Below are positions 3,620-64,000 of a stretch of DNA of 64,000 nucleotides, piece after piece. Both the position numbers and the translations under genes were made by a program. Location of the stretch: positions 170,480 to 234,479 of the forward strand of contig CAWCXJ010000005.1 of assembly GCA_963799485.1 (NCBI GenBank). The letters are read 5' to 3'. The notes below the pieces were generated by a model. The model made no database searches, was not told the origin of the DNA, and saw only the letters and a program-made list of their open reading frames with translations. The stretch's first letter is position 1. Each line of letters begins with the position of its first letter. The stretch comes from an uncultured Trueperaceae bacterium (lineage in GTDB: Bacteria > Deinococcota > Deinococci > Deinococcales > Trueperaceae).

Positions 3620-4642
3620 ATGGCTTATTCTACCTCTCCCCGTGCGAAAACGCTGCAACGTTCCAAATGGTTGGGCTTGGCGCTCGGTTTGGGTTTGCTG
3701 CTCGCGTGTTTAGCGCTCAGCGTCACCTTAGGCGCAGCGGACATCTCGGTCGGGACGGTGTTCGCCGCGCTGTTTCGCGCCAACGGGTCGCTCGAGCATC
3801 TCGTCATCCGCACGGTGCGTTTGCCCAGGGTACTCGCGGGCGCGGTTGTCGGCGCAGCTTTGGCAGTTGCGGGCGCAATCATGCAGGGGCTGACCCGTAA
3901 CCCGCTGGCGTCGCCGAGTATTTTAGGCGTCAACGCGGGGGCGTCGTTCGCCGTCGTTTTAGCGGTGTTGATTCTGGGGAGCCCGCCGTTCTCGCTTTAC
4001 GCTTTGTTCGCCTTTATCGGCGCGGCGGTAGCCGCTGCGTTCGTCTACGCGCTCGGTTCGGTCGGGCGCAGCGGCGCGACACCCCTCAAACTGACGCTGG
4101 CGGGCGCGGTTTTTACGGCGTTTGTGAGTTCGTTTACCACTGCGATTCTGATTATGAGTCAGAGTACGCTCGAGCAGGTGCGTTTCTGGACGGCGGGCTC
4201 GTTGGCGGGTCGTGAGCTGCCGCTGCTGCTCGGGACAGCACCTTATATTTTGGTCGGGCTCGTCGGCGCGATGTTTTTAGGACGGCAGCTCACCGCGCTC
4301 AGCCTGGGCGACGACGTAGCGACAGGTTTGGGACAAAACACGGGCTGGCTCAAAGCGCTCGCAGCGGTGCTGGTCGTACTTTTGGCGGGGGGTGCGGTGG
4401 CGCTCGCGGGGCCGGTCGGGTTTGTCGGTCTGATTGTACCGCACGTCGTGCGTTTTCTCGTCGGGGTCGATTACCGCTGGATACTGCCGTACTCGGCGCT
4501 TCTGGGCGGGGTGCTGGTGACACTCGCAGACATCGGAGCGAGACTCGTTATCCGGCCACAGGAGTTGCCGGTAGGTGTGATCATGGCGCTTATCGGCGCG
4601 CCTTTTTTTATCTATCTGGCGCGTACCAGGGTGCGGCGCTGA
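3620..4642 (+). CDS. FecCD-family iron ABC permease
   Basis: RLPRVL, QGLTRNPLASPSILGVNAGA and GPVGFVGLIVPH motifs. Confidence 0.95.
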   Translation: MAYSTSPRAKTLQRSKWLGLALGLGLLLACLALSVTLGAADISVGTVFAALFRANGSLEHLVIRTVRLPRVLAGAVVGAALAVAGAIMQGLTRNPLASPSILGVNAGASFAVVLAVLILGSPPFSLYALFAFIGAAVAAAFVYALGSVGRSGATPLKLTLAGAVFTAFVSSFTTAILIMSQSTLEQVRFWTAGSLAGRELPLLLGTAPYILVGLVGAMFLGRQLTALSLGDDVATGLGQNTGWLKALAAVLVVLLAGGAVALAGPVGFVGLIVPHVVRFLVGVDYRWILPYSALLGGVLVTLADIGARLVIRPQELPVGVIMALIGAPFFIYLARTRVRR

Positions 4643-4708
4643 TGCTGCACGAATCTATCAAGGTGCGGCGCTGATGCTGCACGAATCTATCAAGGTGCGG
4701 CGCTGATG
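4630..4708 (+). repeat. 32-bp tandem repeat (~2.5 copies) spanning the permease stop/start junction
   Basis: ggtgcggcgctgatgctgcacgaatctatcaa at 4630 and 4662; partial copy at 4694. Confidence 0.95.
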
Positions 4709-5782
4709 GCGCACAGGTTACAACCTGAAACCCGGCAAGGTGGCGCGGGAACCTGGCATACCGTCCGTCTGGGCAAACGGGTTTCTTTTCGCCTCGACCG
4801 GCGTGCCCTGCCTGTCCTGCTCGTGCTGCTCTTTTTGCTCTTGGCAGTCGCGGTTTTAAGCGTGAGCTACGGCGAGTACAAGATTGCGCCGCTCGACGTG
4901 GTGCGGGCGACGCTGGGTTTGGAGACCGGCAACGACGATTACCCTTTGGTGGTGCGGCTGTTTCGCTTGCCGCGTATCGTGCTGGCGGCGCTCGTCGGGG
5001 CGGCGCTGGCGGTCTCCGGGGCGGTTTTGCAGGGCATTACGCACAACCCGCTCGCCGACCCCGGTATTCTGGGCATCAGCAGTGGCGCGGCGCTCGCTGC
5101 CGTTTCTCTGCTCATCTATTTTACGGCGGCCCCGGCCCTGCTTTTACCGTGGGCGGCGTTCGGCGGAGCGCTGCTGACGGCGGCGCTCATCTATCTGCTG
5201 GCGTGGCGCGGGGGCAGTTCGCCGCTGCGCCTGATTCTTATCGGTATCGGTTTCGCCGCCGCCGCGCAAGCCCTGACGACGCTCTTGGTCGTTTTTGGCG
5301 ACATCAGCGACGTGCAGCGGGCGTTCGTGTGGCTTTCAGGGAGTGTCTACGGGCGCGGTTGGGCGGACGTGCGGGTGCTGGCGCTGTGGCTCGCGGTTCT
5401 TTTACCGCTTACGTTCTTGAGCGCGCGGCAGCTCAATACGCTCTCCCTCGGGGACGAGAGTGCGACCGGGCTGGGGGTGGGGCTCGAGCGTACCAGGGCT
5501 TTTCTCAGCCTCCTGAGCGTCGCACTCGCCGCGGGCGCAGTCGCGGCGGCGGGTACGGTCGGGTTTGTCGGGCTCGTTGCGCCGCACATCACCCGGCGGC
5601 TGGTCGGCCCCGGGCACGAAGGCTTGCTCCCGGCGAGCGCCCTGACCGGTGCGCTGCTAGTCGTTACCGCCGACCTGATAGGGCGCACGGTCATCGCGCC
5701 GAGTCAACTGCCCGCCGGACTCGTCACGGCGGTTATCGGCGCACCCTATTTTATGTACCTGCTCTGGCGCTACCGGGATTAG
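4706..5782 (+). CDS. FecCD-family iron ABC permease (second)
   Basis: RLPRIV, NPLADPGILGISSGA and GTVGFVGLVAPH motifs. Confidence 0.95.
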   Translation: MAHRLQPETRQGGAGTWHTVRLGKRVSFRLDRRALPVLLVLLFLLLAVAVLSVSYGEYKIAPLDVVRATLGLETGNDDYPLVVRLFRLPRIVLAALVGAALAVSGAVLQGITHNPLADPGILGISSGAALAAVSLLIYFTAAPALLLPWAAFGGALLTAALIYLLAWRGGSSPLRLILIGIGFAAAAQALTTLLVVFGDISDVQRAFVWLSGSVYGRGWADVRVLALWLAVLLPLTFLSARQLNTLSLGDESATGLGVGLERTRAFLSLLSVALAAGAVAAAGTVGFVGLVAPHITRRLVGPGHEGLLPASALTGALLVVTADLIGRTVIAPSQLPAGLVTAVIGAPYFMYLLWRYRD

Positions 5783-23338: not shown

Positions 23339-24208
23339 ATGAAACTCGCATGGATAGGTCTCGGCACGATGGGCGCGCCGATGGCGCAGCGTTTGATTGA
23401 CGCAGGGCTCGAGGTAACGGTTTACAACCGTACCCAAAAACGCGAAGAAAACGTTACGGGGGCGAAGCGGGCCGACAGCCCCCAAGGGGCCGCATCAGAC
23501 TGTGACGCCGTGTTTACGATGGTCAGCGACACGCCGGACGCCGAAGCCGTGATTGCCGGTGAAGGGGGCGCACTTTACGGTATGAAACCCGGCAGCGTGC
23601 TGGTAGACATGAGCACCATCAGCCCCGCTGTGACGCAAAGCTTAGCCGCGCAGCTCGCTGAAAAAGGTATAGAGATGCTCGACGCGCCTGTTTCGGGCGG
23701 CAGCGAAGGCGCGCAAAAAGGTACGCTCGCGGTGATGGTCGGGGGTAAAGCTGAGGTTTTAGAGCGCGTTCAGGACGTGCTTTCACACCTCGCTAAAACT
23801 GTGACTTATGTGGGGCCGTCCGGGAGTGGGCAGCTTGTCAAGGCTATCAACCAGGTGGTGATTGCCGGGACATATGCAGCGGTTGCTGAGGGGATGGCGC
23901 TCGGCCTCGCCGCAGATTTGGATATGGACGCGGTGGTTTCGGCGATTGCGGGTGGTGCGGCGGGCTCGTGGGTGTTAGAAAACCGCTCCGGCAACATGAT
24001 TCGCGGTGAGTATCCGCTCGGGTTTCGGACACGGCTGCACCGTAAAGATTTGGGGATTGCGCTCTCGGCGGCGCGGGATTTAGGGGTGCCGCTTCAGGTT
24101 ACGGCGCTTGTAGAACAGCTCGAGACCGGCCTTATCAAACGGGGTTACGGCGACGAAGACGTGTCGAATATCGCCCGAGCGGTGCGGGAGAGTGCGGGGC
24201 TCAAGTGA
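23339..24208 (+). CDS. NAD(P)-dependent beta-hydroxyacid dehydrogenase (3-hydroxyisobutyrate/tartronate semialdehyde reductase family)
   Basis: IGLGTMG, DAPVSGG and GSGQLVKAINQ motifs. Confidence 0.92.
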   Translation: MKLAWIGLGTMGAPMAQRLIDAGLEVTVYNRTQKREENVTGAKRADSPQGAASDCDAVFTMVSDTPDAEAVIAGEGGALYGMKPGSVLVDMSTISPAVTQSLAAQLAEKGIEMLDAPVSGGSEGAQKGTLAVMVGGKAEVLERVQDVLSHLAKTVTYVGPSGSGQLVKAINQVVIAGTYAAVAEGMALGLAADLDMDAVVSAIAGGAAGSWVLENRSGNMIRGEYPLGFRTRLHRKDLGIALSAARDLGVPLQVTALVEQLETGLIKRGYGDEDVSNIARAVRESAGLK

Positions 24209-24737
24209 ATTTGGGCGAAGCTTACCTGTCTGACGTTCGGAACCGTTTCATCAGCCTGAAGAAGCTGGCGGACGATGCGCTGAAACAAGCCGACGCCGAC
24301 TTTTTTACGGTCTTGGGGCCGGAAGATAACTCTCTGGCAGTTATCGTCAAGCATATGAGCGGGAATATGGTGTCGCGTTGGGGCAATTTGAGCGAGGATG
24401 GGGAGAGTAAAAGTAGAGACCGCGACGCCGAGTTTATCATTTCGGAAAGCCGGGATGATTTACTCGCACGGTGGGAAAACGGTTGGGATACGCTGTTTGG
24501 GGCGCTCGAGTCGCTCAACCCCGACAAGTTGTTAGACACCGTAAAAATTCGCGGCGAAGCACACACGATATGGCCGCCGTAAACCGGCAGCTAAGCCACT
24601 ACGCCTATCATGTAGGCCAAATCGTCTTTCTCGCCAAGCATTTTCGGGGTGAGGCGTGGGCGAGTTTGAGTATTCCGCGCGGGGAGTCGGCAGCGTTTAA
24701 CGAGAAGATGCTCGAGAGGAATGACAAAACAATTTAG
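24205..24737 (+). pseudogene. DUF1572/DinB-like protein split by a 1-nt frameshift near 24568
   Basis: First frame NSLAVIVKHMSGNM.SRW..RDRDAEF..IRGEAHT; second frame continues MAAVNRQLSHYAYHVGQIVFLAK..W.SLSIPRG. Confidence 0.8.
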
Positions 24738-24746
24738 AGGTTCTGT

Positions 24747-26198
24747 CTACTGGATAGATTGTAAGTCAGCCATTGTAGGAAGGTCGGCCTCCGTAATAGC
24801 AGACAGGTTTTCTTCAGTGATGTCGGTTATCGTCACGATGCGATTCGCTTGGTTACTGAGCGTCATTTCAAAGAGGTTTCTGGCAAATCTTGCGTTACCA
24901 AAAGTTTCATCTCGAGTTTCGTAAAAAGTGGCGAAGAGTTGAAGTAAAGCGTCTCTCGCTGCTTGCTCCATATGGTAATCGGCGTTTTTGCAAAATAACT
25001 CAAAAATTTCAACCAGCTGCATTGGGCTGTAGTCTTCAAAGCTCAAGTACTTGTTGAAGCGTGAGCGTAAACCTGGATTAGAAGACAGAAAGGCGCTCAT
25101 CTTGTCGGTGTAGCCAGCGACAATAACGATGAAGTCATCACGCTTGTCCTCCATAGCTTTGAGTAAGGTATCAATAGCCTCCTGCCCGTAATCTTGCCCA
25201 CTTCCCGAATTTAGGGCATACGCTTCGTCAATGAACAGAACACCACCGAGGGCGCTTTCTATAACTTCTGTGGTTTTTAACGCCGTCTGGCCTATATAGC
25301 CTGCGACGAGGCCGGAACGGTCTGTTTCTACTGCGTGCCCCTTGCTCAATATGCCCAGTGACTTATAAATTTGGGCCAAAAGCCGCGCAATAGTGGTTTT
25401 TCCGGTGCCTGGATTCCCGTAAAAGACCAAGTGGCGAGATACAGGCTGTACGCCCAAACCTTTAGACTGCCGGATCTGCTGAACTTTCAAAAAGTTCACA
25501 AGCTGTGCCACATCACCTTTAACGCGCTCGAGGCCAACAAGAGCATTCAACTCACCAAGTAGTCCGTCAAGGCTGTGGGGGACTCCTTCGGTGGAGCTTG
25601 CAATTTCGTTTGTGACTTCAGTAGGTTTGCCGGATATGTTGCTGTAATTTGAATCCGCCCCATACAGAACATTCTTGAACTTGAGTAGCGCAGCTTCTTC
25701 GGTGCGTGTGAGTTTGCCGTCGGCTTTGACTATGGTGTTAGCGTATCGAAAATACACCGCTCTAGCAATTTCAACACAATCAGTGCCACGCACTTGGTCG
25801 TAAACTTCGAGAAAACCCATCGCTTGTGGCATTTCAGGTGTTCTATAAGAGTCAGGGTTATCTATATACAAGTTTCGGAGCATCGTTTGATGTTGACTTC
25901 TTGTCCAATGGCTCGTGTCAACCGGAGAAATATTCATAAACTGATTTACATCTGCCAAAATACCAGCCTCATCGTCTGAAATATCTCCGTCTATGGCTGA
26001 AAAATACATGCCCACATTGAAAAGAGACAGAGCCATGATTTTCCAGCCGTCAACATTTGCATTAGACATTTGCCTTGCATGAATTACCAAATCTATTTTG
26101 TCAGCTAAATCTCCCACCGTATCTTTCAAATGGCTGATTATCTCGTGACTGTTAGCATGAAGAGACACGGTAGCTCCTAACGTGAATTGCCATAACAA
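24747..26198 (-). CDS. CbbX/SpoVK-like AAA+ ATPase with a TerB-like N-terminal region; low GC; start uncertain
   Basis: LVGLERVK, HLVFYGNPGTGKTT, GVLFIDEAY, NPGLRSRF and FGNARFARN motifs; N-terminal AIDGDISDDE and ADGKLTRTE motifs. Confidence 0.85.
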   Translation of the reverse strand: MLWQFTLGATVSLHANSHEIISHLKDTVGDLADKIDLVIHARQMSNANVDGWKIMALSLFNVGMYFSAIDGDISDDEAGILADVNQFMNISPVDTSHWTRSQHQTMLRNLYIDNPDSYRTPEMPQAMGFLEVYDQVRGTDCVEIARAVYFRYANTIVKADGKLTRTEEAALLKFKNVLYGADSNYSNISGKPTEVTNEIASSTEGVPHSLDGLLGELNALVGLERVKGDVAQLVNFLKVQQIRQSKGLGVQPVSRHLVFYGNPGTGKTTIARLLAQIYKSLGILSKGHAVETDRSGLVAGYIGQTALKTTEVIESALGGVLFIDEAYALNSGSGQDYGQEAIDTLLKAMEDKRDDFIVIVAGYTDKMSAFLSSNPGLRSRFNKYLSFEDYSPMQLVEIFELFCKNADYHMEQAARDALLQLFATFYETRDETFGNARFARNLFEMTLSNQANRIVTITDITEENLSAITEADLPTMADLQSIQ

Positions 26199-52520: not shown

Positions 52521-52547
52521 GCTGGTTATAAGAGCTCAACGCGAATT

Positions 52548-52794
52548 TTACTCACTGTAGCTTGACAGCTTCTTCTCCAAAATTGAGCTATTTCGTTTCT
52601 GCATCTCTTTAACGAAAGCTTCACACTCACGAATACTGTTATCAACCTCAGCCTGACGGTCAAAGTAATAACTCAAAGCTGCGTAAATGTCTGCTAATGA
52701 CAAATCGAAAGAGTTCGGGTCATGAAGTCGCGTTCAAAATCAGTTAGATAAATGCCCATATTGACGTAGACTCCTTTATAGATAGTGTCATCAT
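52548..52794 (-). pseudogene. DUF433-family antitoxin remnant (low GC)
   Basis: Minus-strand frame FDLSLADIYAALSYYFDRQAEVDNSIRECEAFVKEMQK...*; start MTLSIKE retained, middle disrupted. Confidence 0.65.
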
Positions 52795-52884
52795 GTTCTA
52801 TTCAAAGCTCTATAACGCAACTCTTTTGCTGTCCCCAACCTTACGCTTTTTCTGCAGCAACAATTTCTACGTTTAAGGCTATCC

Positions 52885-53775
52885 TTACTCCCCCCGCCGC
52901 TGCATGACGAGTGACACCCCGACGAGCACAATTGACACCAAAATCATCAGCGCCGACACCGCATTGATCTCCGGTGGCACGCGCTGTTTTAGCAGCCCGT
53001 AAACAAAGAGCGGCAAGGTTGTTGTCCCAACGCCCGCCGTAAAAAACGTCACCACGAAGTCGTCTAAAGAGATTGTAAAGGCCAAGAGTGCGCCGCCCAA
53101 AATGCCCGGTACGAGCGCTGGAAAGGTGATGTGCCAGAACGTTTGCAGGTGATTTGCGCCGAGGTCTCGAGCGGCTTCCTCGAGCGTCGTGTCCATCGTC
53201 GCGAGCCGCGCCCGCACCACCACGGCGACGTAGGCGATATTAAACGCGATATGCGCGATGATGATGGTCGCGAAGCCGCTCACGAGCCTTACCCCGAAGA
53301 TGTTCTGCACGAGCGCGAAAAACGAGTTGAAAAAGACTGCCAGCGCGACGCCCTGCGTGATGTCGGGGATAATCACCGGCAGGTAAAAAAGGGCGTCGAA
53401 CACCCGTTTTCCGGGAAAGTCGCCTCTGTCCACGGCGAGTGCGAAAAGCGTCCCGATAACTGTAGACGCAACCGTAGAAATCAACCCGACGACGAGCGAA
53501 TTACGTACCGCGCTTAAGAGCAGTTCAGACTGAAAGCTGAGCCCGTTTGCGCCGCCCAGCAGGTTTTGATACCAGCGTAGGGTAAACCCGCGCCACACCG
53601 AAATCGACTCGGCGTTGTTAAACGAATAGATGATCAGCACCAGAATCGGTATCCAGAGAAACACATAGGTCAGAATCGGCACCAGCCAGAGACCGGCCCG
53701 CCCCAACCGGCGAACGGTGAGGTCGCGGCTCAGTTTGCCCTGATTAAGCCTGTGTGCTTTGGCTGTTTTGGTCAT
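52885..53775 (-). CDS. potC: Polyamine ABC permease (copy 1)
   Basis: YSFN, LEEAARDLGA, SLDDF and PEINA motifs. Confidence 0.9.
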   Translation of the reverse strand: MTKTAKAHRLNQGKLSRDLTVRRLGRAGLWLVPILTYVFLWIPILVLIIYSFNNAESISVWRGFTLRWYQNLLGGANGLSFQSELLLSAVRNSLVVGLISTVASTVIGTLFALAVDRGDFPGKRVFDALFYLPVIIPDITQGVALAVFFNSFFALVQNIFGVRLVSGFATIIIAHIAFNIAYVAVVVRARLATMDTTLEEAARDLGANHLQTFWHITFPALVPGILGGALLAFTISLDDFVVTFFTAGVGTTTLPLFVYGLLKQRVPPEINAVSALMILVSIVLVGVSLVMQRRGE

Positions 53776-53776
53776 A

Positions 53777-54631
53777 CTACTCGCGCCGCTCGCCGTAACG
53801 CGTATAGACGACAAGCCCGACCATGACGATCAGCATCAGCACCACTGAAATCGCCGAACCGAGCGGGATGTTGCCGCGTCCGCGAAACTGGCCTTGAATC
53901 AGGTTGCCGATCATCAGGCCGCGCGTCCCGCCCAACAGGTCAGGCGTAATAAACGAGCCGATTGCGGGGATAAACACAAGTACCGAACCCGCGACGATAC
54001 CGGGCAAGGTGAGCGGCACGATGATGCGCCAAAACGCCTGGAAATCGTTTGCGCCCAGGTCACCGGCAGCCTCGACAAAGCGGAAGTCGAGCCGTTCGGT
54101 GGCGGCGTAGATCGGCAAGACCATAAAGGGGACAAAGCCGTAAACAAGACCCAGCATCACCGCAAACTGCGTATTGAGCATCGTTAGAGGCTCCTGAATG
54201 ACGCCGAAATTGAGCAAAAGGGCATTGAGTGAGCCTTCGCGTCCCATAATGGTTTGCAGCGCGTAGGTGCGGACTAAGAAGTTTGTCCAGAAAGGTAGCA
54301 AAATCAAAAAAAGCAAAAACTGCCGGGTGCGCGGGTTGGGGCGGGTGCTGATAAAAAAGGCGACGGGGAAACCGAGCAAGAGGCAAATCAGGGTTGTTAG
54401 GAGGGAAAAATAGAGCGTTCGCCAGATGACCGGCCAGAACACATCGAAGGTGCGAGTGTAGTTCTCTAAAGTTGCGGGGGCGGTAGGAGTACCGTCTAAG
54501 CCGCGAGTAAAAAAGCTCGAGACCAGCACAAAAATGAGCGGCACCAGGAAAAAAACAATCAGCCAGAAAAGTCCGGGAAAGGCGAGCAGGAGGCTGGGGC
54601 CGCGTCCGGTCTTGTTCGTTCTAGAAGCCAA
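53777..54631 (-). CDS. potB: Polyamine ABC permease (copy 1)
   Basis: LPFWTNFLVRTYA, PFMVLPIY and EAAGDLGA motifs. Confidence 0.9.
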   Translation of the reverse strand: MASRTNKTGRGPSLLLAFPGLFWLIVFFLVPLIFVLVSSFFTRGLDGTPTAPATLENYTRTFDVFWPVIWRTLYFSLLTTLICLLLGFPVAFFISTRPNPRTRQFLLFLILLPFWTNFLVRTYALQTIMGREGSLNALLLNFGVIQEPLTMLNTQFAVMLGLVYGFVPFMVLPIYAATERLDFRFVEAAGDLGANDFQAFWRIIVPLTLPGIVAGSVLVFIPAIGSFITPDLLGGTRGLMIGNLIQGQFRGRGNIPLGSAISVVLMLIVMVGLVVYTRYGERRE

Positions 54632-54672
54632 GCGTCTCTCCCCTCAACGCCGGAGCGTTGCGTCAGCATACC

Positions 54673-54686
54673 TCAAATGCATTTGA
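54673..54686. promoter_or_regulatory. Perfect 14-bp palindrome next to the potB -10 box (also at 60224-60237)
   Basis: TCAAATGCATTTGA directly upstream of minus-strand TATGCT (54665-54670). Confidence 0.55.
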
Positions 54687-54806
54687 CAAAGGCTGAGCGG
54701 TGTGCGCGGAGGGTCGTGTCAATTTACTCCGCTTTCACACAATGATTGACCCCCGCTCAACTACAAGCGGGGGCTTTATGAATTGCGGGCTAATTCGCAC
54801 CTGATT

Positions 54807-55355
54807 TTACCAAACGAAGTCTTTAACGATGGGAGCGTCGGCGTAGCAAATCATGCCAAACTCGTTTTCGCCCGCACAACCTAGAGACGCAGGGATTCCA
54901 TTTACTTCACCGTTTCTAACATCTACACCGTCAGGGTCGTTCCTGACTTTTGTGATGATAATGTCGGTGCCAGCTGCGCTTTTGAAAGTTTCTGATGTAC
55001 CAACGGGGCCACTGCGTAACGCCACGATGTCAACTTTTGCGTAGGTAAGCTGAGATTTGTAGAACTCTGCCAGCTTGGGGCTCTTGAGAAAAGCGTCTTC
55101 GGTAAGCCCCTGTTCCTTGACATAAGTTTTCAAGTTATCTTCGCCGGTCAGGAAAAGCGCGAGAGGGTAACTATCACGGCCCAAGTCGCTAACGATACCG
55201 GAGGCTTTGACCGCCCGAACTTCAAAATCTCCCTCCAGCCCTGGTTGGTTGATAGCTTCCTCTACAGAGTAGGGGATAGGGTCTGTAGTAGGTTCCGTGT
55301 TACAGGCAATCAGGATTACACTAAGAGCTAATAAGCTCAGTACTATCTTCTTCAC
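54807..55355 (-). CDS. Lipoprotein, possibly fasciclin (FAS1)-like (copy 1)
   Basis: Lipobox LIAC; GLTEDAFLKSPKLAEF..T.KS.AG..I.I...VNG resembles FAS1. Confidence 0.6.
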   Translation of the reverse strand: MKKIVLSLLALSVILIACNTEPTTDPIPYSVEEAINQPGLEGDFEVRAVKASGIVSDLGRDSYPLALFLTGEDNLKTYVKEQGLTEDAFLKSPKLAEFYKSQLTYAKVDIVALRSGPVGTSETFKSAAGTDIIITKVRNDPDGVDVRNGEVNGIPASLGCAGENEFGMICYADAPIVKDFVW

Positions 55356-55380
55356 AAGGGTTCTCCGTCCTCTCAATAGC

Positions 55381-56406
55381 CTAATATCGTGTGTTAATGG
55401 CTTGAATATCTCTAGCAGTCAGGGCGTTACCGCCTATAATCCCTCCGTAGCTACCTATCACGGTAAACATAGGCTCTTGCGTGCTTCTTACAAAATCCAG
55501 GTTGCTAGTCCTACTAGCGTAGTGCATGACTGAGGCGTAGTCGTAGGTTGTGCGAGATTCGTGCTCGAATTTCTTCTCAAACTGGGTTTTCCCTTTACTG
55601 GTCAGATTGCTCCAGTTCACAACGATGAAAGCATCCCTATCGGTTCGTTGATGCTCATGCATAAGACCCAGAGCATGTCCGAACTCGTGCAAGATAGTTC
55701 CTGGAGTTACGCAACCAGCACCTAGATTGAGGTTTTGCGGCTGCTTGCTACTACGACCGGGAACGGCGTAGCAACCGTCATTTCTGTTGGTAAGCATCAC
55801 GCGGTCGCCGGTCGTGCGGTATCCAACTTGGATATCAGTCAACCTGTCGAGGGTTGCCAGATTGTTCCTGATTAAAGTCTGTTGTGCAGGAGTGAAAATC
55901 CGAAGCGAAATCTGATCGACATAGAGAACACTACCGGGCCAGCCGCCACCCCGACGCTCACCACAGATAAAGAGAAAACTGCTCGCACAGTAAGGCTTAT
56001 ACATCGCACCCTGAGCTGAAAGAGCGTCAGAGCCCTGTGCTAGCTGAGCTTCGTAGGCGGCAAAATCTTTTTGAAGCTCCGTAGTAGTACCTTGAATCAC
56101 ATCAGCTTCAAAAACGATGCCGTTATAAACGGTGTAGGTGTACTCTTCACCGTTGCTGAAAGTGTGGGTGCGAATTTGAATCTTGTCCGGGCTCGTTACA
56201 GCTTGCGCTTGAACGCCCTTATCTAGAGCTTTGAGCGCTTCCGCAAGCGTGTCATACCGAGGGTCTTTGGAGAAATCTTCCTGTACCTCTACGGCCTCGA
56301 CGCCAGGCATGAACTGTTCGTTGACTCTAGTGTTTTCTGTTGTAGCAGCGGGAACATCAGCTGCGATATTACTGCAGCTTGCTAGAGAAAGACCCAACAG
56401 TGCCAC
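55381..56406 (-). CDS. Astacin-family (M12A) zinc metallopeptidase lipoprotein (copy 1); start uncertain
   Basis: Lipobox LASC; HEFGHALGLMHEHQRTDRD; Met-turn YDYASVMHY. Confidence 0.92.
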   Translation of the reverse strand: MALLGLSLASCSNIAADVPAATTENTRVNEQFMPGVEAVEVQEDFSKDPRYDTLAEALKALDKGVQAQAVTSPDKIQIRTHTFSNGEEYTYTVYNGIVFEADVIQGTTTELQKDFAAYEAQLAQGSDALSAQGAMYKPYCASSFLFICGERRGGGWPGSVLYVDQISLRIFTPAQQTLIRNNLATLDRLTDIQVGYRTTGDRVMLTNRNDGCYAVPGRSSKQPQNLNLGAGCVTPGTILHEFGHALGLMHEHQRTDRDAFIVVNWSNLTSKGKTQFEKKFEHESRTTYDYASVMHYASRTSNLDFVRSTQEPMFTVIGSYGGIIGGNALTARDIQAINTRY

Positions 56407-56597
56407 TAGCCACCTTACACCTGACTCTCATTTACCCGCCAGCTCTGAATTTGTCAATACACCTAGACCAGCTAGCGAGCAGAACCACAGAAAAACCGGT
56501 AGCGTCAAAGTGAACAACCGTAAAGAGAGAATAGCGTTCGGCCTTGTATTCGTAAGAGTCAGGTTTTCTACCGCTGCTTAACTGTGTTGAAGAGATG

Positions 56598-57290
56598 TTA
56601 AAGCTTGCGCCGCGCTTTGTCAATAACCTCATGAGCAGATGGTGAAGATGTTGTGAGCTGTTTAGCTGTACTTTGCCTCTGGGTGCGGAGTGCACCGATT
56701 AAAGGCCGCAGTGCGTCACTTTTGAGTTTGAGCGCGGCGCGGTTGACGACAAACCGGGCGGACGAAGTGAGGATGACCTCGAGTTCCTCCAACCCATTGG
56801 CCCGAAGCGTCCCGCCGGTCTCGACGATATCGACGACCGCATCGGCTAAGCCCGCCAGACACGCCAGCTCGACGTTTCCGGCCAGCTTGACGACCTCGGC
56901 GCTAAGCCCGCGTTCTTGCAAGTAGCGCCGGGTCGTGTGGGGATATTTCGAGGCAATCCGCCGCACCGGGCCACGCGCGCCTATGGGCCGAATCAGCGAC
57001 AAACGGCAGTGGGCGAACCCCAGATCGACGGGTTCGTAAACGCTCCTGCCGGACTCTAAGAGCACATCTTTCCCGACGACGCCTGCGTCCGCCACGCCCA
57101 AATCGACATACGTCGGCACATCGGTATTTCGCATCTCGATGATGCGCGCGCCGCCCGCGTCGTACTGCAAAGCGCGGGTTCCGGGCGGGTCTGAAAGCTC
57201 GAGTCCGGCAGCCCGCAAAAGCGTCAAGCTTTTTTGCATCACCCGACCTTTGGGCAGTGCCAGGGTGAGCTGAGCGCTCGGTTTAAGCAT
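56598..57290 (-). CDS. hisG: ATP phosphoribosyltransferase, short form (copy 1)
   Basis: LALPKGR, DVPTYV, GKDVL, ASKYP and DIVETG.TL motifs; no C-terminal regulatory domain. Confidence 0.93.
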
Positions 57291-58029
57291 GGTCGTGAGG
57301 TGTTGCGTGAGCAGGTCAAACAAGTCGCACTTCTGCATCCCACTTATGGTTACAGATTCCTCCATCAAGAATTGCGTGCCCAGGGTGAGCAGGTAGGCTT
57401 ACACCGCGTCAGAGAACTGCTGGGAGAACTCGAGCTGAACCCGCCGCAGCCACGCAAGACGAGAAAGCCCACGGCGGCGGTTGCGACACCCGCTGATTGG
57501 CCCACTGGTCGTCGGCTACAAATTGACGCGACCCGCTTATCGCTGGCTGATGGCGTGTGTTGGGTCTATCACGTGCTGGACGTGCAGTCACGAGTAGTCC
57601 TGGCAAGCAAAGCAGTCCGGAGCCTGTCGATGCACCTGGCTAAAGCCGCGCTCGACGAAGGCGTCGCCGTGCTGCGCTCAATCGGCGTCTCCGGTACTGT
57701 CCTGATTCAAAGTGATGGTGGTTCGGACTTTACCAGTGAGGTGTTTCAAAACGCTTGCTCGTGCTATGGCGCGTGGGTCAGGTGCAAAGTCAGCCAGAGA
57801 GGGGGTACGGGAATCCTCGAAAGACTCAACCGAACCTACAAATACACCTTCCCCTTCAGGCACGACTGGAAATCGCTCGCTGAAGTACAAGCTGCCTTAC
57901 CTGACTTTCACCGCTGGTATAACCGCCACCGGCGACACTCGGCGCTGAACTACACTACCCCTTGGGCTGCACTGACTGGAGCAGCAAACCCTCGCTTAGC
58001 TGCTTGAAGGGATTGTTGGAGCAGTACCA
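57291..58029 (+). mobile_element. 5'-truncated IS3-family element (OrfB DDE transposase ending 58007) (copy 1)
   Basis: YGYR, QIDAT, QSDGGSDF, ERLNRTYK and YNR.RRHSAL.Y.TP motifs; right end ...ggagcagtacca; no left end or orfA. Confidence 0.85.
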
Positions 58030-58329
58030 CATGCCCTAATTTTACTGTTTTTTTGGAGTCTATCCCCTAGCACTCGAGGTTCTTAATTTCTCGTTCTCTG
58101 CCTCACTTAACTCGATATAGCTTCCTCCTCGCTTTGTCGTCCCTTGGTATTCGCCTTCAACCTACTTCCTTAGGTTGCGTGTACTTAGTCTCGACACCTT
58201 GCGTGCTGCCATTTCAGCTCGTTCCAGTTCCGCTAAAATTGGCCTCGATATTTGTCTGTAACTTTTGTTCTCGTAGTGAGCCCTCAGGTATTTAGAACCC
58301 GACTTTACAATTGCCCTCAGGGTCCGCTC

Positions 58330-58370
58330 TTGACGCCGACAAAAGAATCCGGGTATTCTATCTTTTGTCG
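58330..58370 (+). promoter_or_regulatory. tRNA promoter TTGACG-18-TATTCT with a 10-bp inverted repeat around the -10 (also at +5551)
   Basis: cgacaaaaga (58337) / tcttttgtcg (58361). Confidence 0.65.
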
Positions 58371-58376
58371 TATCGG

Positions 58377-58437
58377 GGGGCTTTAGCTCAGCTGGGAGAG
58401 CACCTGCTTTGCAAGCAGGGGGTCATCAGTTCAAATC
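58377..58437 (+). pseudogene. 3'-truncated tRNA-Ala(TGC) at the duplication junction
   Basis: Identical to the first 61 nt of the intact tRNA; stops after GTTCAAATC, so the T-stem and acceptor 3' strands are missing. Confidence 0.93.
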
Positions 58438-59326
58438 ACTCCCCCCGCCGCTGCATCACCAGAGAAACCCCGACGAGCAAGATAGACACCGCAATCATCA
58501 ACGCCGACACCGCGTTGATTTCCGGTGGCACGCGCTGTTTTAGCAGCCCGTAAACAAAGAGCGGCAAGGTTGTTGTCCCAACGCCCGCCGTAAAAAACGT
58601 CACCACGAAGTCGTCTAAAGAGATTGTAAAGGCCAAGAGTGCGCCGCCCAAAATGCCCGGTACGAGCGCTGGAAAGGTGATGTGCCAGAACGTTTGCAGG
58701 TGATTTGCGCCGAGGTCTCGAGCGGCTTCCTCGAGCGTCGTGTCCATCGTCGCGAGCCGCGCCCGCACCACCACGGTGACGTAGGCGATATTAAACGCGA
58801 TATGCGCGATGATGATGGTCGCGAAGCCGCTCACGAGCCTTACCCCGAAGATGTTCTGCATGAGCGCGAAAAACGAGTTGAAAAAGACTGCCAGCGCGAC
58901 GCCCTGCGTGATGTCGGGGATAATCACCGGCAGGTAAAAAAGGGCGTCGAACACCCGTTTTCCGGGAAAGTCGCCTCTGTCCACGGCGAGTGCGAAAAGC
59001 GTCCCGATAACTGTAGACGCAACCGTAGAAATCAACCCGACGACGAGCGAATTACGTACCGCGCTTAAGAGCAGTTCAGACTGAAAGCTGAGCCCGTTTG
59101 CGCCGCCCAGCAGGTTTTGATACCAGCGTAGGGTAAACCCGCGCCACACCGAAATCGACTCGGCGTTGTTAAATGAATAGATGATCAGCACCAGAATCGG
59201 TATCCAGAGAAACACATAGGTCAGAATCGGCACCAGCCAGAGACCGGCCCGCCCCAACCGGCGAACGGTGAGGTCGCGGCTCAGTTTGCCCTGATTAAGC
59301 CTGTGTGCTTTGGCTGTTTTGGTCAT
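58436..59326 (-). CDS. potC: Polyamine ABC permease (copy 2, alternative 3' end)
   Basis: Duplicate of 52885-53775; its TGA stop overlaps the tRNA fragment. Confidence 0.9.
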   Translation of the reverse strand: MTKTAKAHRLNQGKLSRDLTVRRLGRAGLWLVPILTYVFLWIPILVLIIYSFNNAESISVWRGFTLRWYQNLLGGANGLSFQSELLLSAVRNSLVVGLISTVASTVIGTLFALAVDRGDFPGKRVFDALFYLPVIIPDITQGVALAVFFNSFFALMQNIFGVRLVSGFATIIIAHIAFNIAYVTVVVRARLATMDTTLEEAARDLGANHLQTFWHITFPALVPGILGGALLAFTISLDDFVVTFFTAGVGTTTLPLFVYGLLKQRVPPEINAVSALMIAVSILLVGVSLVMQRRGE

Positions 59327-59327
59327 A

Positions 59328-60182
59328 CTACTCGCGCCGCTCGCCGTAACGCGTGTAGACGACAAGCCCGACCATGACGATCAGCATCAGCACCACTGAA
59401 ATCGCCGAACCGAGCGGGATGTTGCCGCGTCCGCGAAACTGGCCTTGAATCAGGTTGCCGATCATCAGGCCGCGCGTCCCGCCCAACAGGTCAGGCGTAA
59501 TAAACGAGCCGATTGCGGGGATAAACACAAGTACCGAACCCGCGACGATACCGGGCAAGGTGAGCGGCACGATGATGCGCCAAAACGCCTGGAAATCGTT
59601 TGCGCCCAGGTCACCGGCAGCCTCGACAAAGCGGAAGTCGAGCCGTTCGGTGGCGGCGTAGATCGGCAAGACCATAAAGGGGACAAAGCCGTAAACAAGA
59701 CCCAGCATCACCGCAAACTGCGTATTGAGCATCGTTAGAGGCTCCTGAATGACGCCGAAATTGAGCAAAAGGGCATTGAGTGGGCCTTCGCGTCCCATAA
59801 TGGTTTGCAGCGCGTAGGTGCGGACTAAGAAGTTTGTCCAGAAAGGTAGCAAAATCAAAAAAAGCAAAAACTGCCGGGTGCGCGGGTTGGGGCGGGTGCT
59901 GATAAAAAAGGCGACGGGGAAACCGAGCAAGAGGCAAATCAGGGTTGTTAGGAGGGAAAAATAGAGCGTTCGCCAGATGACCGGCCAGAACACATCGAAG
60001 GTGCGAGTGTAGTTCTCTAAAGTTGCGGGGGCGGTAGGAGTACCGTCTAAGCCGCGAGTAAAAAAGCTCGAGACCAGCACAAAAATGAGCGGCACCAGGA
60101 AAAAAACAATCAGCCAGAAAAGTCCGGGAAAGGCGAGCAGGAGGCTGGGGCCGCGTCCGGTCTTGTTCGTTCTAGAAGCCAA
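59328..60182 (-). CDS. potB: Polyamine ABC permease (copy 2)
   Basis: Duplicate with one S/P difference. Confidence 0.9.
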   Translation of the reverse strand: MASRTNKTGRGPSLLLAFPGLFWLIVFFLVPLIFVLVSSFFTRGLDGTPTAPATLENYTRTFDVFWPVIWRTLYFSLLTTLICLLLGFPVAFFISTRPNPRTRQFLLFLILLPFWTNFLVRTYALQTIMGREGPLNALLLNFGVIQEPLTMLNTQFAVMLGLVYGFVPFMVLPIYAATERLDFRFVEAAGDLGANDFQAFWRIIVPLTLPGIVAGSVLVFIPAIGSFITPDLLGGTRGLMIGNLIQGQFRGRGNIPLGSAISVVLMLIVMVGLVVYTRYGERRE

Positions 60183-60357
60183 GCGTCTCTCCCCTCAACG
60201 CCGGAGCGTTGCGTCAGCATACCTCAAATGCATTTGACAAAGGCTGAGCGGTGTGCGCGGAGGGTCGTGTCAATTTACTCCGCTTTCACACAATGATTGA
60301 CCCCCGCTCAACTACAAGCGGGGGCTTTATGAATTGCGGGCTAATTCGCACCTAATT

Positions 60358-60906
60358 TTACCAAACGAAGTCTTTAACGATGGGAGCGTCGGCGTAGCAA
60401 ATCATGCCAAACTCGTTTTCGCCCGCACAACCTAGAGACGCAGGGATTCCATTTACTTCACCGTTTCTAACATCTACACCGTCAGGGTCGTTCCTGACTT
60501 TTGTGATGATAATGTCGGTGCCAGCTGCGCTTTTGAAAGTTTCTGATGTACCAACGGGGCCACTGCGTAACGCCACGATGTCAACTTTTGCGTAGGTAAG
60601 CTGAGATTTGTAGAACTCTGCCAGCTTGGGGCTCTTGAGAAAAGCGTCTTCGGTAAGCCCCTGTTCCTTGACATAAGTTTTCAAGTTATCTTCGCCGGTC
60701 AGGAAAAGCGCGAGAGGGTAACTATCACGGCCCAAGTCGCTAACGATACCGGAGGCTTTGACCGCCCGAACTTCAAAATCTCCCTCCAGCCCTGGTTGGT
60801 TGATAGCTTCCTCTACAGAGTAGGGGATAGGGTCTGTAGTAGGTTCCGTGTTACAGGCAATCAGGATTACACTAAGAGCTAATAAGCTCAGTACTATCTT
60901 CTTCAC
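60358..60906 (-). CDS. Lipoprotein, possibly FAS1-like (copy 2)
   Basis: Protein identical to copy 1. Confidence 0.6.
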   Translation of the reverse strand: MKKIVLSLLALSVILIACNTEPTTDPIPYSVEEAINQPGLEGDFEVRAVKASGIVSDLGRDSYPLALFLTGEDNLKTYVKEQGLTEDAFLKSPKLAEFYKSQLTYAKVDIVALRSGPVGTSETFKSAAGTDIIITKVRNDPDGVDVRNGEVNGIPASLGCAGENEFGMICYADAPIVKDFVW

Positions 60907-60931
60907 AAGGGTTCTCCGTCCTCTCAATAGC

Positions 60932-61957
60932 CTAATATCGTGTGTTAATGGCTTGAATATCTCTAGCAGTCAGGGCGTTACCGCCTATAATCCCTCCGTA
61001 GCTACCTATCACGGTAAACATAGGCTCTTGCGTGCTTCTTACAAAATCCAGGTTGCTAGTCCTACTAGCGTAGTGCATGACTGAGGCGTAGTCGTAGGTT
61101 GTGCGAGATTCGTGCTCGAATTTCTTCTCAAACTGGGTTTTCCCTTTACTGGTCAGATTGCTCCAGTTCACAACGATGAAAGCATCCCTATCGGTTCGTT
61201 GATGCTTATGCATAAGACCCAGAGCATGTCCGAACTCGTGCAAGATAGTTCCTGGAGTTACGCAACCAGCACCTAGATTGAGGTTTTGCGGCTGCTTGCT
61301 ACTACGACCGGGAACGGCGTAGCAACCGTCATTTCTGTTGGTAAGCATCACGCGGTCGCCGGTCGTGCGGTATCCAACTTGGATATCAGTCAACCTGTCG
61401 AGGGTTGCCAGATTGTTCCTGATTAAAGTCTGTTGTGCAGGAGTGAAAATCCGAAGCGAAATCTGATCGACATAGAGAACACTACCGGGCCAGCCGCCAC
61501 CCCGACGCTCACCACAGATAAAGAGAAAACTGCTCGCACAGTAAGGCTTATACATCGCACCCTGAGCTGAAAGAGCGTCAGAGCCCTGTGCTAGCTGAGC
61601 TTCGTAGGCGGCAAAATCTTTTTGAAGCTCCGTAGTAGTACCTTGAATCACATCAGCTTCAAAAACGATGCCGTTATAAACGGTGTAAGTGTACTCTTCA
61701 CCGTTGCTGAAAGTGTGGGTGCGAATTTGAATCTTGTCCGGGCTCGTTACAGCTTGCGCTTGAACGCCCTTATCTAGAGCTTTGAGCGCTTCCGCAAGCG
61801 TGTCATACCGAGGGTCTTTGGAGAAATCTTCCTGTACCTCTACGGCCTCGACGCCAGGCATGAACTGTTCGTTGACTCTAGTGTTTTCTGTTGTAGCGGC
61901 GGGAACATCAGCTGCGATATTACTGCAGCTTGCTAGAGAAAGACCCAACAGTGCCAC
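60932..61957 (-). CDS. Astacin-family metallopeptidase (copy 2, E>K after the third Zn ligand)
   Basis: HEFGHALGLMHKHQRTDRD. Confidence 0.9.
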   Translation of the reverse strand: MALLGLSLASCSNIAADVPAATTENTRVNEQFMPGVEAVEVQEDFSKDPRYDTLAEALKALDKGVQAQAVTSPDKIQIRTHTFSNGEEYTYTVYNGIVFEADVIQGTTTELQKDFAAYEAQLAQGSDALSAQGAMYKPYCASSFLFICGERRGGGWPGSVLYVDQISLRIFTPAQQTLIRNNLATLDRLTDIQVGYRTTGDRVMLTNRNDGCYAVPGRSSKQPQNLNLGAGCVTPGTILHEFGHALGLMHKHQRTDRDAFIVVNWSNLTSKGKTQFEKKFEHESRTTYDYASVMHYASRTSNLDFVRSTQEPMFTVIGSYGGIIGGNALTARDIQAINTRY

Positions 61958-62148
61958 TAGCCACCTTACACCTGACTCTCATTTACCCGCCAGCTCTGAA
62001 TTTGTCAATACACCTAGATCAGCTAGCGAGCAGAACCACAGAAAAACCGGTAGCGTCAAAGTGAACAACCGTAAAGAGAGAATAGCGTTCGGCCTTGTAT
62101 TCGTAAGAGTCAGGTTTTCTACCGCTGCTTAACTGTGTTGAAGAGATG

Positions 62149-62841
62149 TTAAAGCTTGCGCCGCGCTTTGTCAATAACCTCATGAGCAGATGGTGAAGAT
62201 GTTGTGAGCTGTTTAGCTGTACTTTGCCTCTGGGTGCGGAGTGCACCGATTAAAGGCCGCAGCGCGTCACTTTTGAGTTTGAGCGCGGCGCGGTTGACGA
62301 CAAACCGGGCGGACGAAGTGAGGATGACCTCGAGTTCCTCCAACCCATTGGCCCGAAGCGTCCCGCCGGTCTCGACGATATCGACGACCGCATCGGCTAA
62401 GCCCGCCAGACACGCCAGCTCGACGTTTCCGGCCAGCTTGACGACCTCGGCGCTAAGCCCGCGTTCTTGCAAGTAGCGCCGGGTCGTGTGGGGATATTTC
62501 GAGGCAATCCGCCGCACCGGGCCACGCGCGCCTATGGGCCGAATCAGCGACAAACGGCAGTGGGCGAACCCCAGATCGACGGGTTCGTAAACGCTCCTGC
62601 CGGACTCTAAGAGCACATCTTTCCCGACGACGCCTGCGTCCGCCACGCCCAAATCGACGTAGGTCGGCACATCGGTATTTCGCATCTCGATGATGCGCGC
62701 GCCGCCCGCGTCGTACTGCAAAGCGCGGGTTCCGGGCGGGTCTGAAAGCTCGAGTCCGGCAGCCCGCAAAAGCGTCAAGCTTTTTTGCATCACCCGACCT
62801 TTGGGCAGTGCCAGGGTGAGCTGAGCGCTCGGTTTAAGCAT
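62149..62841 (-). CDS. hisG: ATP phosphoribosyltransferase, short form (copy 2)
   Basis: Duplicate with synonymous differences. Confidence 0.93.
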
Positions 62842-63580
62842 GGTCATGAGGTGTTGCGTGAGCAGGTCAAACAAGTCGCACTTCTGCATCCCACTTATGG
62901 TTACAGATTCCTCTATCAAGAATTGCGTGCCCAGGGTGAGCAGGTAGGCTTACACCGCGTCAGAGAACTGCTGGGAGAACTCGAGCTGAACCCGCCGCAG
63001 CCACGCAAGACGAGAAAGCCCACGGCGGCGGTTGCGACACCCGCTGATTGGCCCACTGGTCGTCGGCTACAAATTGACGCGACCCGCTTATCGCTGGCTG
63101 ATGGCGTGTGTTGGGTCTATCACGTGCTGGACGTGCAGTCACGAGTAGTCCTGGCGAGCAAAGCAGTCCGGAGCCTGTCGATGCACCTGGCTAAAGCCGC
63201 GCTCGACGAAGGCGTCGCCGTGCTGCGCTCAATCGGCGTCTCCGGTACTGTCCTGATTCAAAGTGATGGTGGTTCGGACTTTACCAGTGAGGTGTTTCAA
63301 AACGCTTGCTCGCGCTATGGCGCGTGGGTCAGGTGCAAAGTCAGCCAGAGAGGGGGTACGGGAATCCTCGAAAGACTCAACCGAACCTACAAATACACCT
63401 TCGCCTTCAGGCACGACTGGAAATCGCTCGCTGAAGTACAAGCTGCCTTACCTGACTTTCACCGCTGGTATAACCGCGAGCGGCGACACTCGGCGCTGAA
63501 CTACACTACCCCTTGGGCTGCACTGACTGGAGCAGCAAACCCTCGCTTAGCTGCTTGAAGGGATTGTTGGAGCAGTACCA
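62842..63580 (+). mobile_element. 5'-truncated IS3-family element (copy 2)
   Basis: Duplicate of 57291-58029 with several substitutions. Confidence 0.85.
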
Positions 63581-63927
63581 CATGCCCTAATTTTACTGTT
63601 TTTTTGGAGTCTATCCCCTAGCACTCGAGGTTCTTAATTTCTCGTTCTCTGCCTCACTTAACTCGATATAGCTTCCTCCTCGCTTTGTCGTCCCTTGGTA
63701 TTCGCCTTCAACCTACTTCCTTAGGTTGCGTGTACTTAGTCTCGACACCTTGCGTGCTGCCATTTCAGCTCGTTCCAGTTCCGCTAAAATTGGCCTCGAT
63801 ATTTGTCTGTAACTTTTGTTCTCGTAGTGAGCCCTCAGGTATTTAGAACCCGACTTTACAATTGCCCTCAAGGTCCGCTCTTGACGCCGACAAAAGAACC
63901 CGGGTATTCTATCTTTTGTCGTATCGG

Positions 63928-64000
63928 GGGGCTTTAGCTCAGCTGGGAGAGCACCTGCTTTGCAAGCAGGGGGTCATCAGTTCAAATCTGATAAGCTCCA
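63928..64000 (+). tRNA. tRNA-Ala(TGC), intact to the discriminator base
   Basis: GGGGCTT/AAGCTCC acceptor stem with G3:U70, TGC anticodon, ATCAG-TTCAAAT-CTGAT T arm. Confidence 0.97.

Follow-up and report, generated by a model that had tools for sequence, protein, structure and literature searches.

The locus described here resembles several known systems, each in some respects only. Tandem segmental duplications, the precursors of gene amplification, commonly have short homology at the junction, although such homology is not obligatory. Integrative elements that target tRNA genes, such as tyrosine-integrase islands and prophages, duplicate the 3′ part of the tRNA. Homology-facilitated illegitimate recombination (HFIR) is recognized by a homologous anchor, a heterologous insert, and an illegitimate joint, which usually shows some microhomology. 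In an Escherichia coli assay of HFIR, most of the recovered events were duplications formed by single crossover of a circular molecule (PMC3240628). In Bacillus, short, clustered donor patches are reported to be abundant after natural transformation (PMC13344027). Recombination mosaics are genes in which homologous recombination between diverged lineages has imported alleles, including short donor patches of this sort.

We analyzed a 64,000-nucleotide stretch of a contig from an uncultured Trueperaceae bacterium (hereafter, the window). The final 11.1 kb of the window is a direct head-to-tail repeat with a period of 5551 bp. Self-BLAST and base-by-base comparison of the copies revealed 34 mismatches and 0 gaps, the whole units being 99.4% identical; a repeat finder (find_repeats) had picked up the first 300 bp. 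The coordinates of the repeat units and of the features within them are listed in Table 1. The two copies are in exact register, without a spacer, and are joined at a single novel junction. In these properties, and in carrying chromosomal genes only, the structure matches a tandem segmental duplication. Unlike typical representatives of this class, it shows no microhomology at the joint: The bases flanking the two parental breakpoints differ, giving 0 bp of microhomology, although the left flank seen today may differ from the original. The copies are also 0.4% diverged rather than identical, which is unusual for such unstable structures, and the unit ends within a stop codon on one side and at a tRNA T-loop on the other.

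Table 1. Coordinates of the repeat units, the junction, the diverged potC ends, and the genes of the repeated region in the window.
Feature	Position	Strand	Description
Repeat unit, copy 1	52887..58437		5551 bp; potC, potB, orf189, astacin-like protease, hisG, IS3 OrfB remnant, first 61 nt of tRNA-Ala
Repeat unit, copy 2	58438..63988		Directly after copy 1; stops at position 61 of the intact tRNA-Ala
Novel junction	58437..58438		Joins tRNA position 61 with the potC stop codon at its first base
Patch variant v1	52906..52969	-	potC codons 269-290, copy 1; C terminus LVSIV; contiguous with the native left flank
Patch variant v2	58457..58520	-	potC codons 269-290, copy 2; C terminus AVSIL; 19 bp from the novel junction
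Spacer	52521..52884		364 bp, 40% GC, broken small ORFs; between the GNAT gene and the potC stop; spot variable among Truepera species
potC, copy 1	52885..53775	-	296 aa from ATG; ABC permease, PF00528; stop TAA
potC, copy 2	58436..59326	-	Stop TGA; derived changes A184T and V156M
potB, copy 1	53777..54631	-	ABC permease, PF00528
orf189 and astacin-like metalloprotease	54807..56406	-	Protease PF01400; low-GC insertion absent from L001 and L002
hisG	56598..57296	-	PF01634
IS3-family OrfB remnant	57298..58007	+	No OrfA; lacks approximately the first 40 residues of 283-aa relatives
tRNA-Ala(TGC) 5′ fragment	58377..58437	+	Positions 1-61, matching the intact gene at 61/61; break at the T-loop/T-stem edge
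Intact tRNA-Ala(TGC)	63928..64000	+	Sole intact tRNA (ARAGORN); ends at the last base of the window

The repeat boundary (52887/58438) falls inside the potC stop codon, and the repeat includes no more of the stop than its first base. In copy 1, the TAA stop (52885-52887, minus strand) takes its two other bases from the native flank; in copy 2, the corresponding bases of the TGA stop (58436-58438) come from the tRNA T-loop. The earlier note on this DNA had pointed to the different stops as part of a recoded gene end. The difference is real, but since the junction falls inside the stop codon, it is a by-product of the junction and does not belong to the diverged stretch considered below. The same note had placed the divergence exactly at the duplication boundary; it is indeed near the boundary but starts further inwards, the first 19 bp of the unit being identical in both copies. 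At the right edge of the unit, there are 0 differences in the last 89 bp. Since this identical stretch includes the non-functional tRNA fragment, the junction appears to be far younger than the divergence of the two potC ends.

The mismatches between the copies are strongly clustered. Twelve of the 34 are located within 64 bp at the 3′ end of potC (18.8%; hereafter, the patch, with variant v1 in copy 1 and variant v2 in copy 2), and the other 22 are spread over the remaining 5487 bp (0.40%). The probability of finding at least 12 of the 34 mismatches in 64 of 5551 positions is 2.4e-15 (binomial). Codon analysis showed that nine of the patch differences are synonymous, while the other three nucleotide differences produce two substitutions, L279A and V283L. 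The self-BLAST, base-by-base, and codon comparisons thus reproduced what had been noted at the outset: the number and extent of the differences, the ~0.4% divergence of the rest of the unit, and the two residue swaps. Over the 22 patch codons, v1 and v2 differ with pS = 0.49 and pN = 0.063, compared to pS = 0.0071 and pN = 0.0017 in the remaining 3954 coding bases (seven synonymous and five non-synonymous differences). The spectrum of changes is different as well, with a transition-to-transversion ratio of 5:7 in the patch versus 18:4 outside it (Fisher p = 0.026).

A PotC scan of species-representative genomes yielded 36 loci. The nearest two, L001 (92% protein identity) and L002 (91%), come from Truepera metagenome-assembled genomes and lie in 4-Mb contigs with one potC locus each. 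The loci that follow, L003 to L017, show 61 to 71% identity; most are labeled Trueperaceae, and two are recorded only as uncultured bacterium. The potC gene of the window differs from that of L001 with pS 0.49 and from that of L002 with pS 0.40. The pS of the patch equals these values, which indicates that the patch is an orthologous allele under purifying selection and about species-level distant. Both types of C terminus are found in relatives. LVSIV, the copy 1 type, is present in P0004, P0005, P0007, P0008, P0017 (Truepera radiovictrix), and L002; AVSIL or AISIL, the copy 2 type, is present in L001, P0006, and P0013. Judging from these comparisons, one of the two potC ends is a different, functional allele from a lineage approximately as distant as another species, and the patch seems to reflect neither mutational decay nor targeted mutagenesis. 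This agrees with the proposal of the earlier note that one potC end came from a more distant donor, a proposal supported both by the contrast in pS between the patch and the rest of the unit and by the occurrence of the two allele types in relatives. Targeted hypermutation, such as that caused by diversity-generating retroelements, was considered separately and rejected from the pattern of differences alone: 9 of the 12 are synonymous, and v2 has the base of L001 or L002 at all 12 sites.

The diverged end could also have been copied by gene conversion from a third potC-like paralogue located elsewhere in the genome. The window covers 64 kb, whereas the contig is at least 234 kb long, which leaves room for such a gene. 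However, no third potC template was found in the window, where, beyond the two copies themselves, v1 and v2 give only chance matches of 9 to 15 bases; the best other PotC match is potB, with 50% identity over 40 residues. The same search answers, for the 64-kb window, the earlier suggestion that a third paralogue might explain the patch. Since L001 and L002 also have a single potC locus each, we consider conversion from a paralogue very unlikely.

An allele exchange within potC would have a precedent among the relatives. P0013, a Truepera-like PotC, is identical to P0006 over the C-terminal 145 of 145 residues, while its N-terminal half matches P0006 at 104 of 151 positions (69%) and T. radiovictrix at 121 of 151. 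On this comparison, P0013 is clearly an intragenic recombinant PotC, and crossovers inside potC do occur in Truepera.

The gene order potD, potA, acyltransferase gene, and GNAT gene (left flank), followed by potC, potB, and hisG, is kept in L001 and L002. Given this shared synteny of the left flank, potC, potB, and hisG, copy 1 occupies the ancestral context. Immediately past the potC stop, the DNA is unalignable among the window, L001, and L002. The window has the low-GC spacer here, L001 has a GrpB gene (L001:11257-11890), and L002 has ~3 kb of DNA encoding a T5orf172/MUG113 nuclease-like protein, an HTH protein, and a methyltransferase (L002:11252-14251). The variable downstream cargo that the earlier note suggested looking for is therefore present, in that the three species differ right past the potC stop, but the variability starts at the stop codon and not at ~52971, where a breakpoint had been placed. 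From these alignments, the potC stop is the edge of a conserved block adjoining a variable spot.

Several features distinguish the window from both L001 and L002. One is the 2-kb, 49% GC segment with orf189 and the protease. Another is the loss of hisZ upstream of hisG, with an insertion sequence remnant in its place. The third is the nearby tRNA gene; none of the nine scanned loci, L001 and L002 included, has a tRNA gene in the 10-kb flanks of potC. In the Pfam annotation, the transposase remnant is the one gene of the unit that is not on the minus strand. The low-GC segment lies between potB and hisG (54676-56676 and 60227-62227; 49% GC versus 57.7% for the window), and the ORF of the astacin-like metalloprotease within it occupies 55381-56406 in copy 1. 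The 189-residue product of orf189 gave no Pfam family match. By eye, the sequences of orf189 and the protease may start with lipoprotein-like signal sequences. The IS3 OrfB remnant (57298-58007 and 62849-63558) adjoins the hisG start, the place where L001 carries hisZ, and no hisZ homologue was found in the window. Copy 2 has an ATG at the canonical start of hisG (62845-62847), which reads ACG in copy 1 (57294-57296); both copies keep an ATG two codons further on. Rfam scores were 34 bits for the tRNA fragment and 68.7 bits for the intact tRNA-Ala. A promoter and terminator scan around the unit returned no more sites than were found in shuffled sequences. Elsewhere in the window, a perfect 32-bp tandem repeat of 2.5 copies (4630-4708) is situated exactly where two adjacent FecCD-family permease genes (3620-4642 and 4706-5782) meet, and a 2-kb stretch at 24001-26000, with 50% GC in a 57 to 60% GC background, may be another acquired segment.

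A tRNA-derived junction with a diverged gene end next to it, together with variable cargo downstream of potC in relatives, is what could be expected of an integrative element that has its att sites at the potC terminus and in the tRNA and brings along a substitute 3′ end for potC, which is how the earlier note had read the locus. The breakpoint in the T-loop region of the tRNA is a further likeness to tRNA-targeting elements. The likeness does not go further. In a Pfam scan, the six main ORFs of the unit matched the permease, astacin, and HisG families and, in truncated form, an rve transposase, but no integrase or recombinase family. The repeated part of the tRNA is its 5′ 61 nt and not its 3′ part. 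The 3′-terminal 21-mer of the tRNA, which would form the att core as a direct repeat, occurs once in the window, with up to three mismatches allowed. The cargo consists of neighboring core genes, with potC, potB, and hisG syntenic with L001 and L002, and the would-be element is a 99.6% copy of adjacent syntenic chromosomal genes. Every tested defining feature of a tRNA-targeting integrative element thus fails here. The att-site interpretation is not supported, and an integrative element strikes us as barely credible as an explanation. The undescribed gene-end-replacement mechanism suggested along with it likewise found no support, an ordinary homologous-recombination mosaic being preferred.

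Concerted evolution was considered as well. If an old duplication had been homogenized by gene conversion, its edge could have escaped for want of two-sided homology, and a diverged stretch at the edge of the repeat would then be explained without coincidence. Such a history would raise divergence at both edges of the repeat, which is not what was found, with 0 differences in 89 bp on the right and 0 in 19 bp on the left. The identity at the right edge is the more difficult to reconcile with an old duplication since the non-functional 61-nt tRNA fragment should have decayed. Nor is the interior of the unit homogenized: The 22 differences outside the patch are evenly spread, and derived states are found in both copies. 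We therefore regard an old, homogenized duplication as highly improbable.

The differences outside the patch were polarized against L001 and L002, relatives of the insertion sequence, and solved astacins; 9 of the 22 could not be polarized. Copy 2 is derived at five sites (53226, 53310, 53623, 53804, and 55656) and copy 1 at eight (54232, 56712, 57111, 57363, 57762, 57852, and 57927/57929), all in copy 1 coordinates. Some of the changes affect conserved residues. In copy 2, these are A184T and V156M in PotC and E251K in the astacin-like protease (55656/61207); the latter lies in the HExxHxxGxxHE zinc-binding motif, in which copy 1 keeps the E of solved astacins. In copy 1, they are P134S in PotB and the change of the hisG start from ATG to ACG, and at 57927/57929, the catalytic E of the transposase remnant is replaced by H. 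The copies have thus diverged independently, by ~0.4% overall and by 0.7% at synonymous sites, whether side by side in this genome or in separate strains that were joined later.

The contig could also be a consensus of strains that occur together, or a misassembly. In that case, the copies would be haplotypes of two strains, connected through a junction that is either real or spurious, and the patch would represent a polymorphism between strains. In favor of this, the closest relatives are without exception metagenome-assembled genomes, strains typically show an evenly spread divergence like the 0.4% seen here, instability would be expected of a 5.5-kb tandem repeat with diverged copies, and copy 2 ends just 12 nt short of the end of the window. 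On the other hand, the register is exact, without a single indel in 5551 bp; the unique junction sequence must exist in some molecule; and the changes at conserved residues in each copy look like relaxed constraint under redundancy. We consider a mixture of strains or a misassembly unlikely, though worth keeping in mind.

Alternatively, the junction and the patch could have been made by a single event, in which diverged DNA from another strain or species was added beside the resident copy, either as a circularized fragment integrated by single crossover or through HFIR, leaving a diverged end next to an illegitimate joint. In agreement with this, v2, the variant least like the rest of the genome, is located 19 bp from the junction, and both ends of the unit are at edges of conserved blocks (the potC stop beside the variable spot and the tRNA T-loop). 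Private derived changes are present in both copies, as would be expected of two strains (five sites in copy 2 and eight in copy 1). Duplications were, moreover, the main product of such substrates in E. coli (PMC3240628). The resemblance to HFIR or to single crossover of a circularized fragment lies in the homologous, anchor-like stretch beside an illegitimate joint and in the kind of product most commonly recovered in that assay (PMC3240628). Unlike in HFIR, there is no truly foreign or heterologous insert at this locus, the added DNA being homologous over its whole length, and no microhomology at the joint. A single event would also require the end of the fragment to meet the edge of a diverged tract by chance. 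Last, the derived states alternate along the unit in blocks (copy 2, copy 1, copy 2, and copy 1) once the astacin E251K change is counted. All this makes a common origin of the junction and the patch rather unlikely.

A specific version of such an event is the tandem insertion of a block from another Truepera lineage, bounded where homology to the recipient stops, i.e., at the variable spot and at the tRNA-Ala T-loop. The diverged potC end would then mark the edge of the donor DNA. We consider this additive version quite improbable. In a related analysis, a single contiguous 5551-bp inserted haplotype lying across the junction and carrying all derived alleles was examined and rejected: 12 polarized sites fit, but the astacin E251K change breaks the two-block pattern.

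We also asked which copy carries the newcomer end. The number of window-unique sites is eight in v1 and one in v2, compared to 5.9 ± 3.3 in other 64-bp windows of potC and potB (n = 25). The pS of v2 is 0.27 relative to L001 and 0.22 relative to L002, below the potC-wide values of 0.49 and 0.40, and over about 79 to 83 bp, v2 is 93.7% and v1 84.6% identical to L001. These counts lean slightly toward v2 as the newcomer, a weak signal that comes from 18 synonymous sites. A donor search among the 36 loci, of which 23 gave any match, produced no convincing donor; the best match of v1 was 86%. The window was also aligned with both L001 and L002 and relatedness compared every 300 bp, leaving out the MAFFT rows past 54700, which the window-specific insertion had misaligned. 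Relatedness did not change on passing from the left flank into the repeat, all three genomes being about equidistant (80 to 87%). Since the three genomes are equidistant, the flank comparison is uninformative as to whether the left flank is foreign. From the point of view of mechanism, copy 1 would be the easy recipient, with homology on both sides, while v2 as the newcomer is awkward for ordinary two-sided recombination, being situated 19 bp from the junction with no homology to the left.

The explanation that we moderately prefer invokes two separate, ordinary processes: a tandem duplication by illegitimate joining and, at the end of potC, a mosaic made by homologous recombination. A 5551-bp chromosomal block would have been duplicated head to tail by an illegitimate (non-homologous) join of tRNA-Ala position 61 to the potC stop. 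The last 64 or more base pairs of potC would have been present in the lineage as two functional alleles diverged at the species level, of which each copy now has one, homologous recombination with another Truepera lineage having replaced the gene end in one copy. Exchange of the variable spot past the potC stop through flanking homology would place crossovers in the 3′ end of potC. Because only copy 1 has homology on both sides, the simplest route would be import into copy 1 together with the left flank, with the end of the tract somewhere from 52970 to 53225. Since the duplication alone offers an internal comparison, a tract entering from the left flank would be visible only from the boundary inwards, which may be why the patch seems to be located at the boundary. 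The comparisons above directly show the repeat, its junction, the species-level synonymous divergence, the two alleles in relatives, the variable spot, and recombination within potC in another Truepera; recombination as the origin of the patch, its direction, and the order of the events are what we infer.

The patch shares with described recombination mosaics a short tract with species-level synonymous divergence, a protein that is kept, and a sharp transition to near-identity. The tract is far above background, mostly synonymous, and at the level seen between lineages (pS 0.49 versus 0.0071); both alleles are present in related lineages, and another recombinant PotC exists in Truepera. Short clustered donor patches are also described in the Bacillus study (PMC13344027). 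The locus differs from known mosaics in that the comparison is made with a paralogous tandem copy on the same contig instead of with another strain, in that the tract adjoins a duplication junction, and in that no donor was found among the 36 loci. Two further points count against the combination of a duplication and a mosaic. Some luck is still required for an endpoint to fall within 83 bp of the boundary, and a 5.5-kb tandem repeat diverged by 0.4% would be unexpectedly stable if both copies evolved in place.

Overall, the clustered divergence at the end of potC is real and statistically secure; a mobile-element mechanism is not supported, and the explanation is most likely an ordinary one. 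Mechanistic novelty would follow only if a single event had created both the junction and the patch. If, in particular, a block from another lineage had been added in tandem, this would be one way in which naturally transformable, polyploid Deinococcota could gain gene copies from relatives via homology-bounded blocks. As a caution, a diverged gene end beside a tRNA fragment should not be taken as an att site. If the preferred explanation by two ordinary processes is true, the locus would be a natural example of a tandem duplication exposing an otherwise invisible recombination endpoint, and also of exchange between lineages along the edge of a variable spot in Truepera, few genomes of which have been studied.
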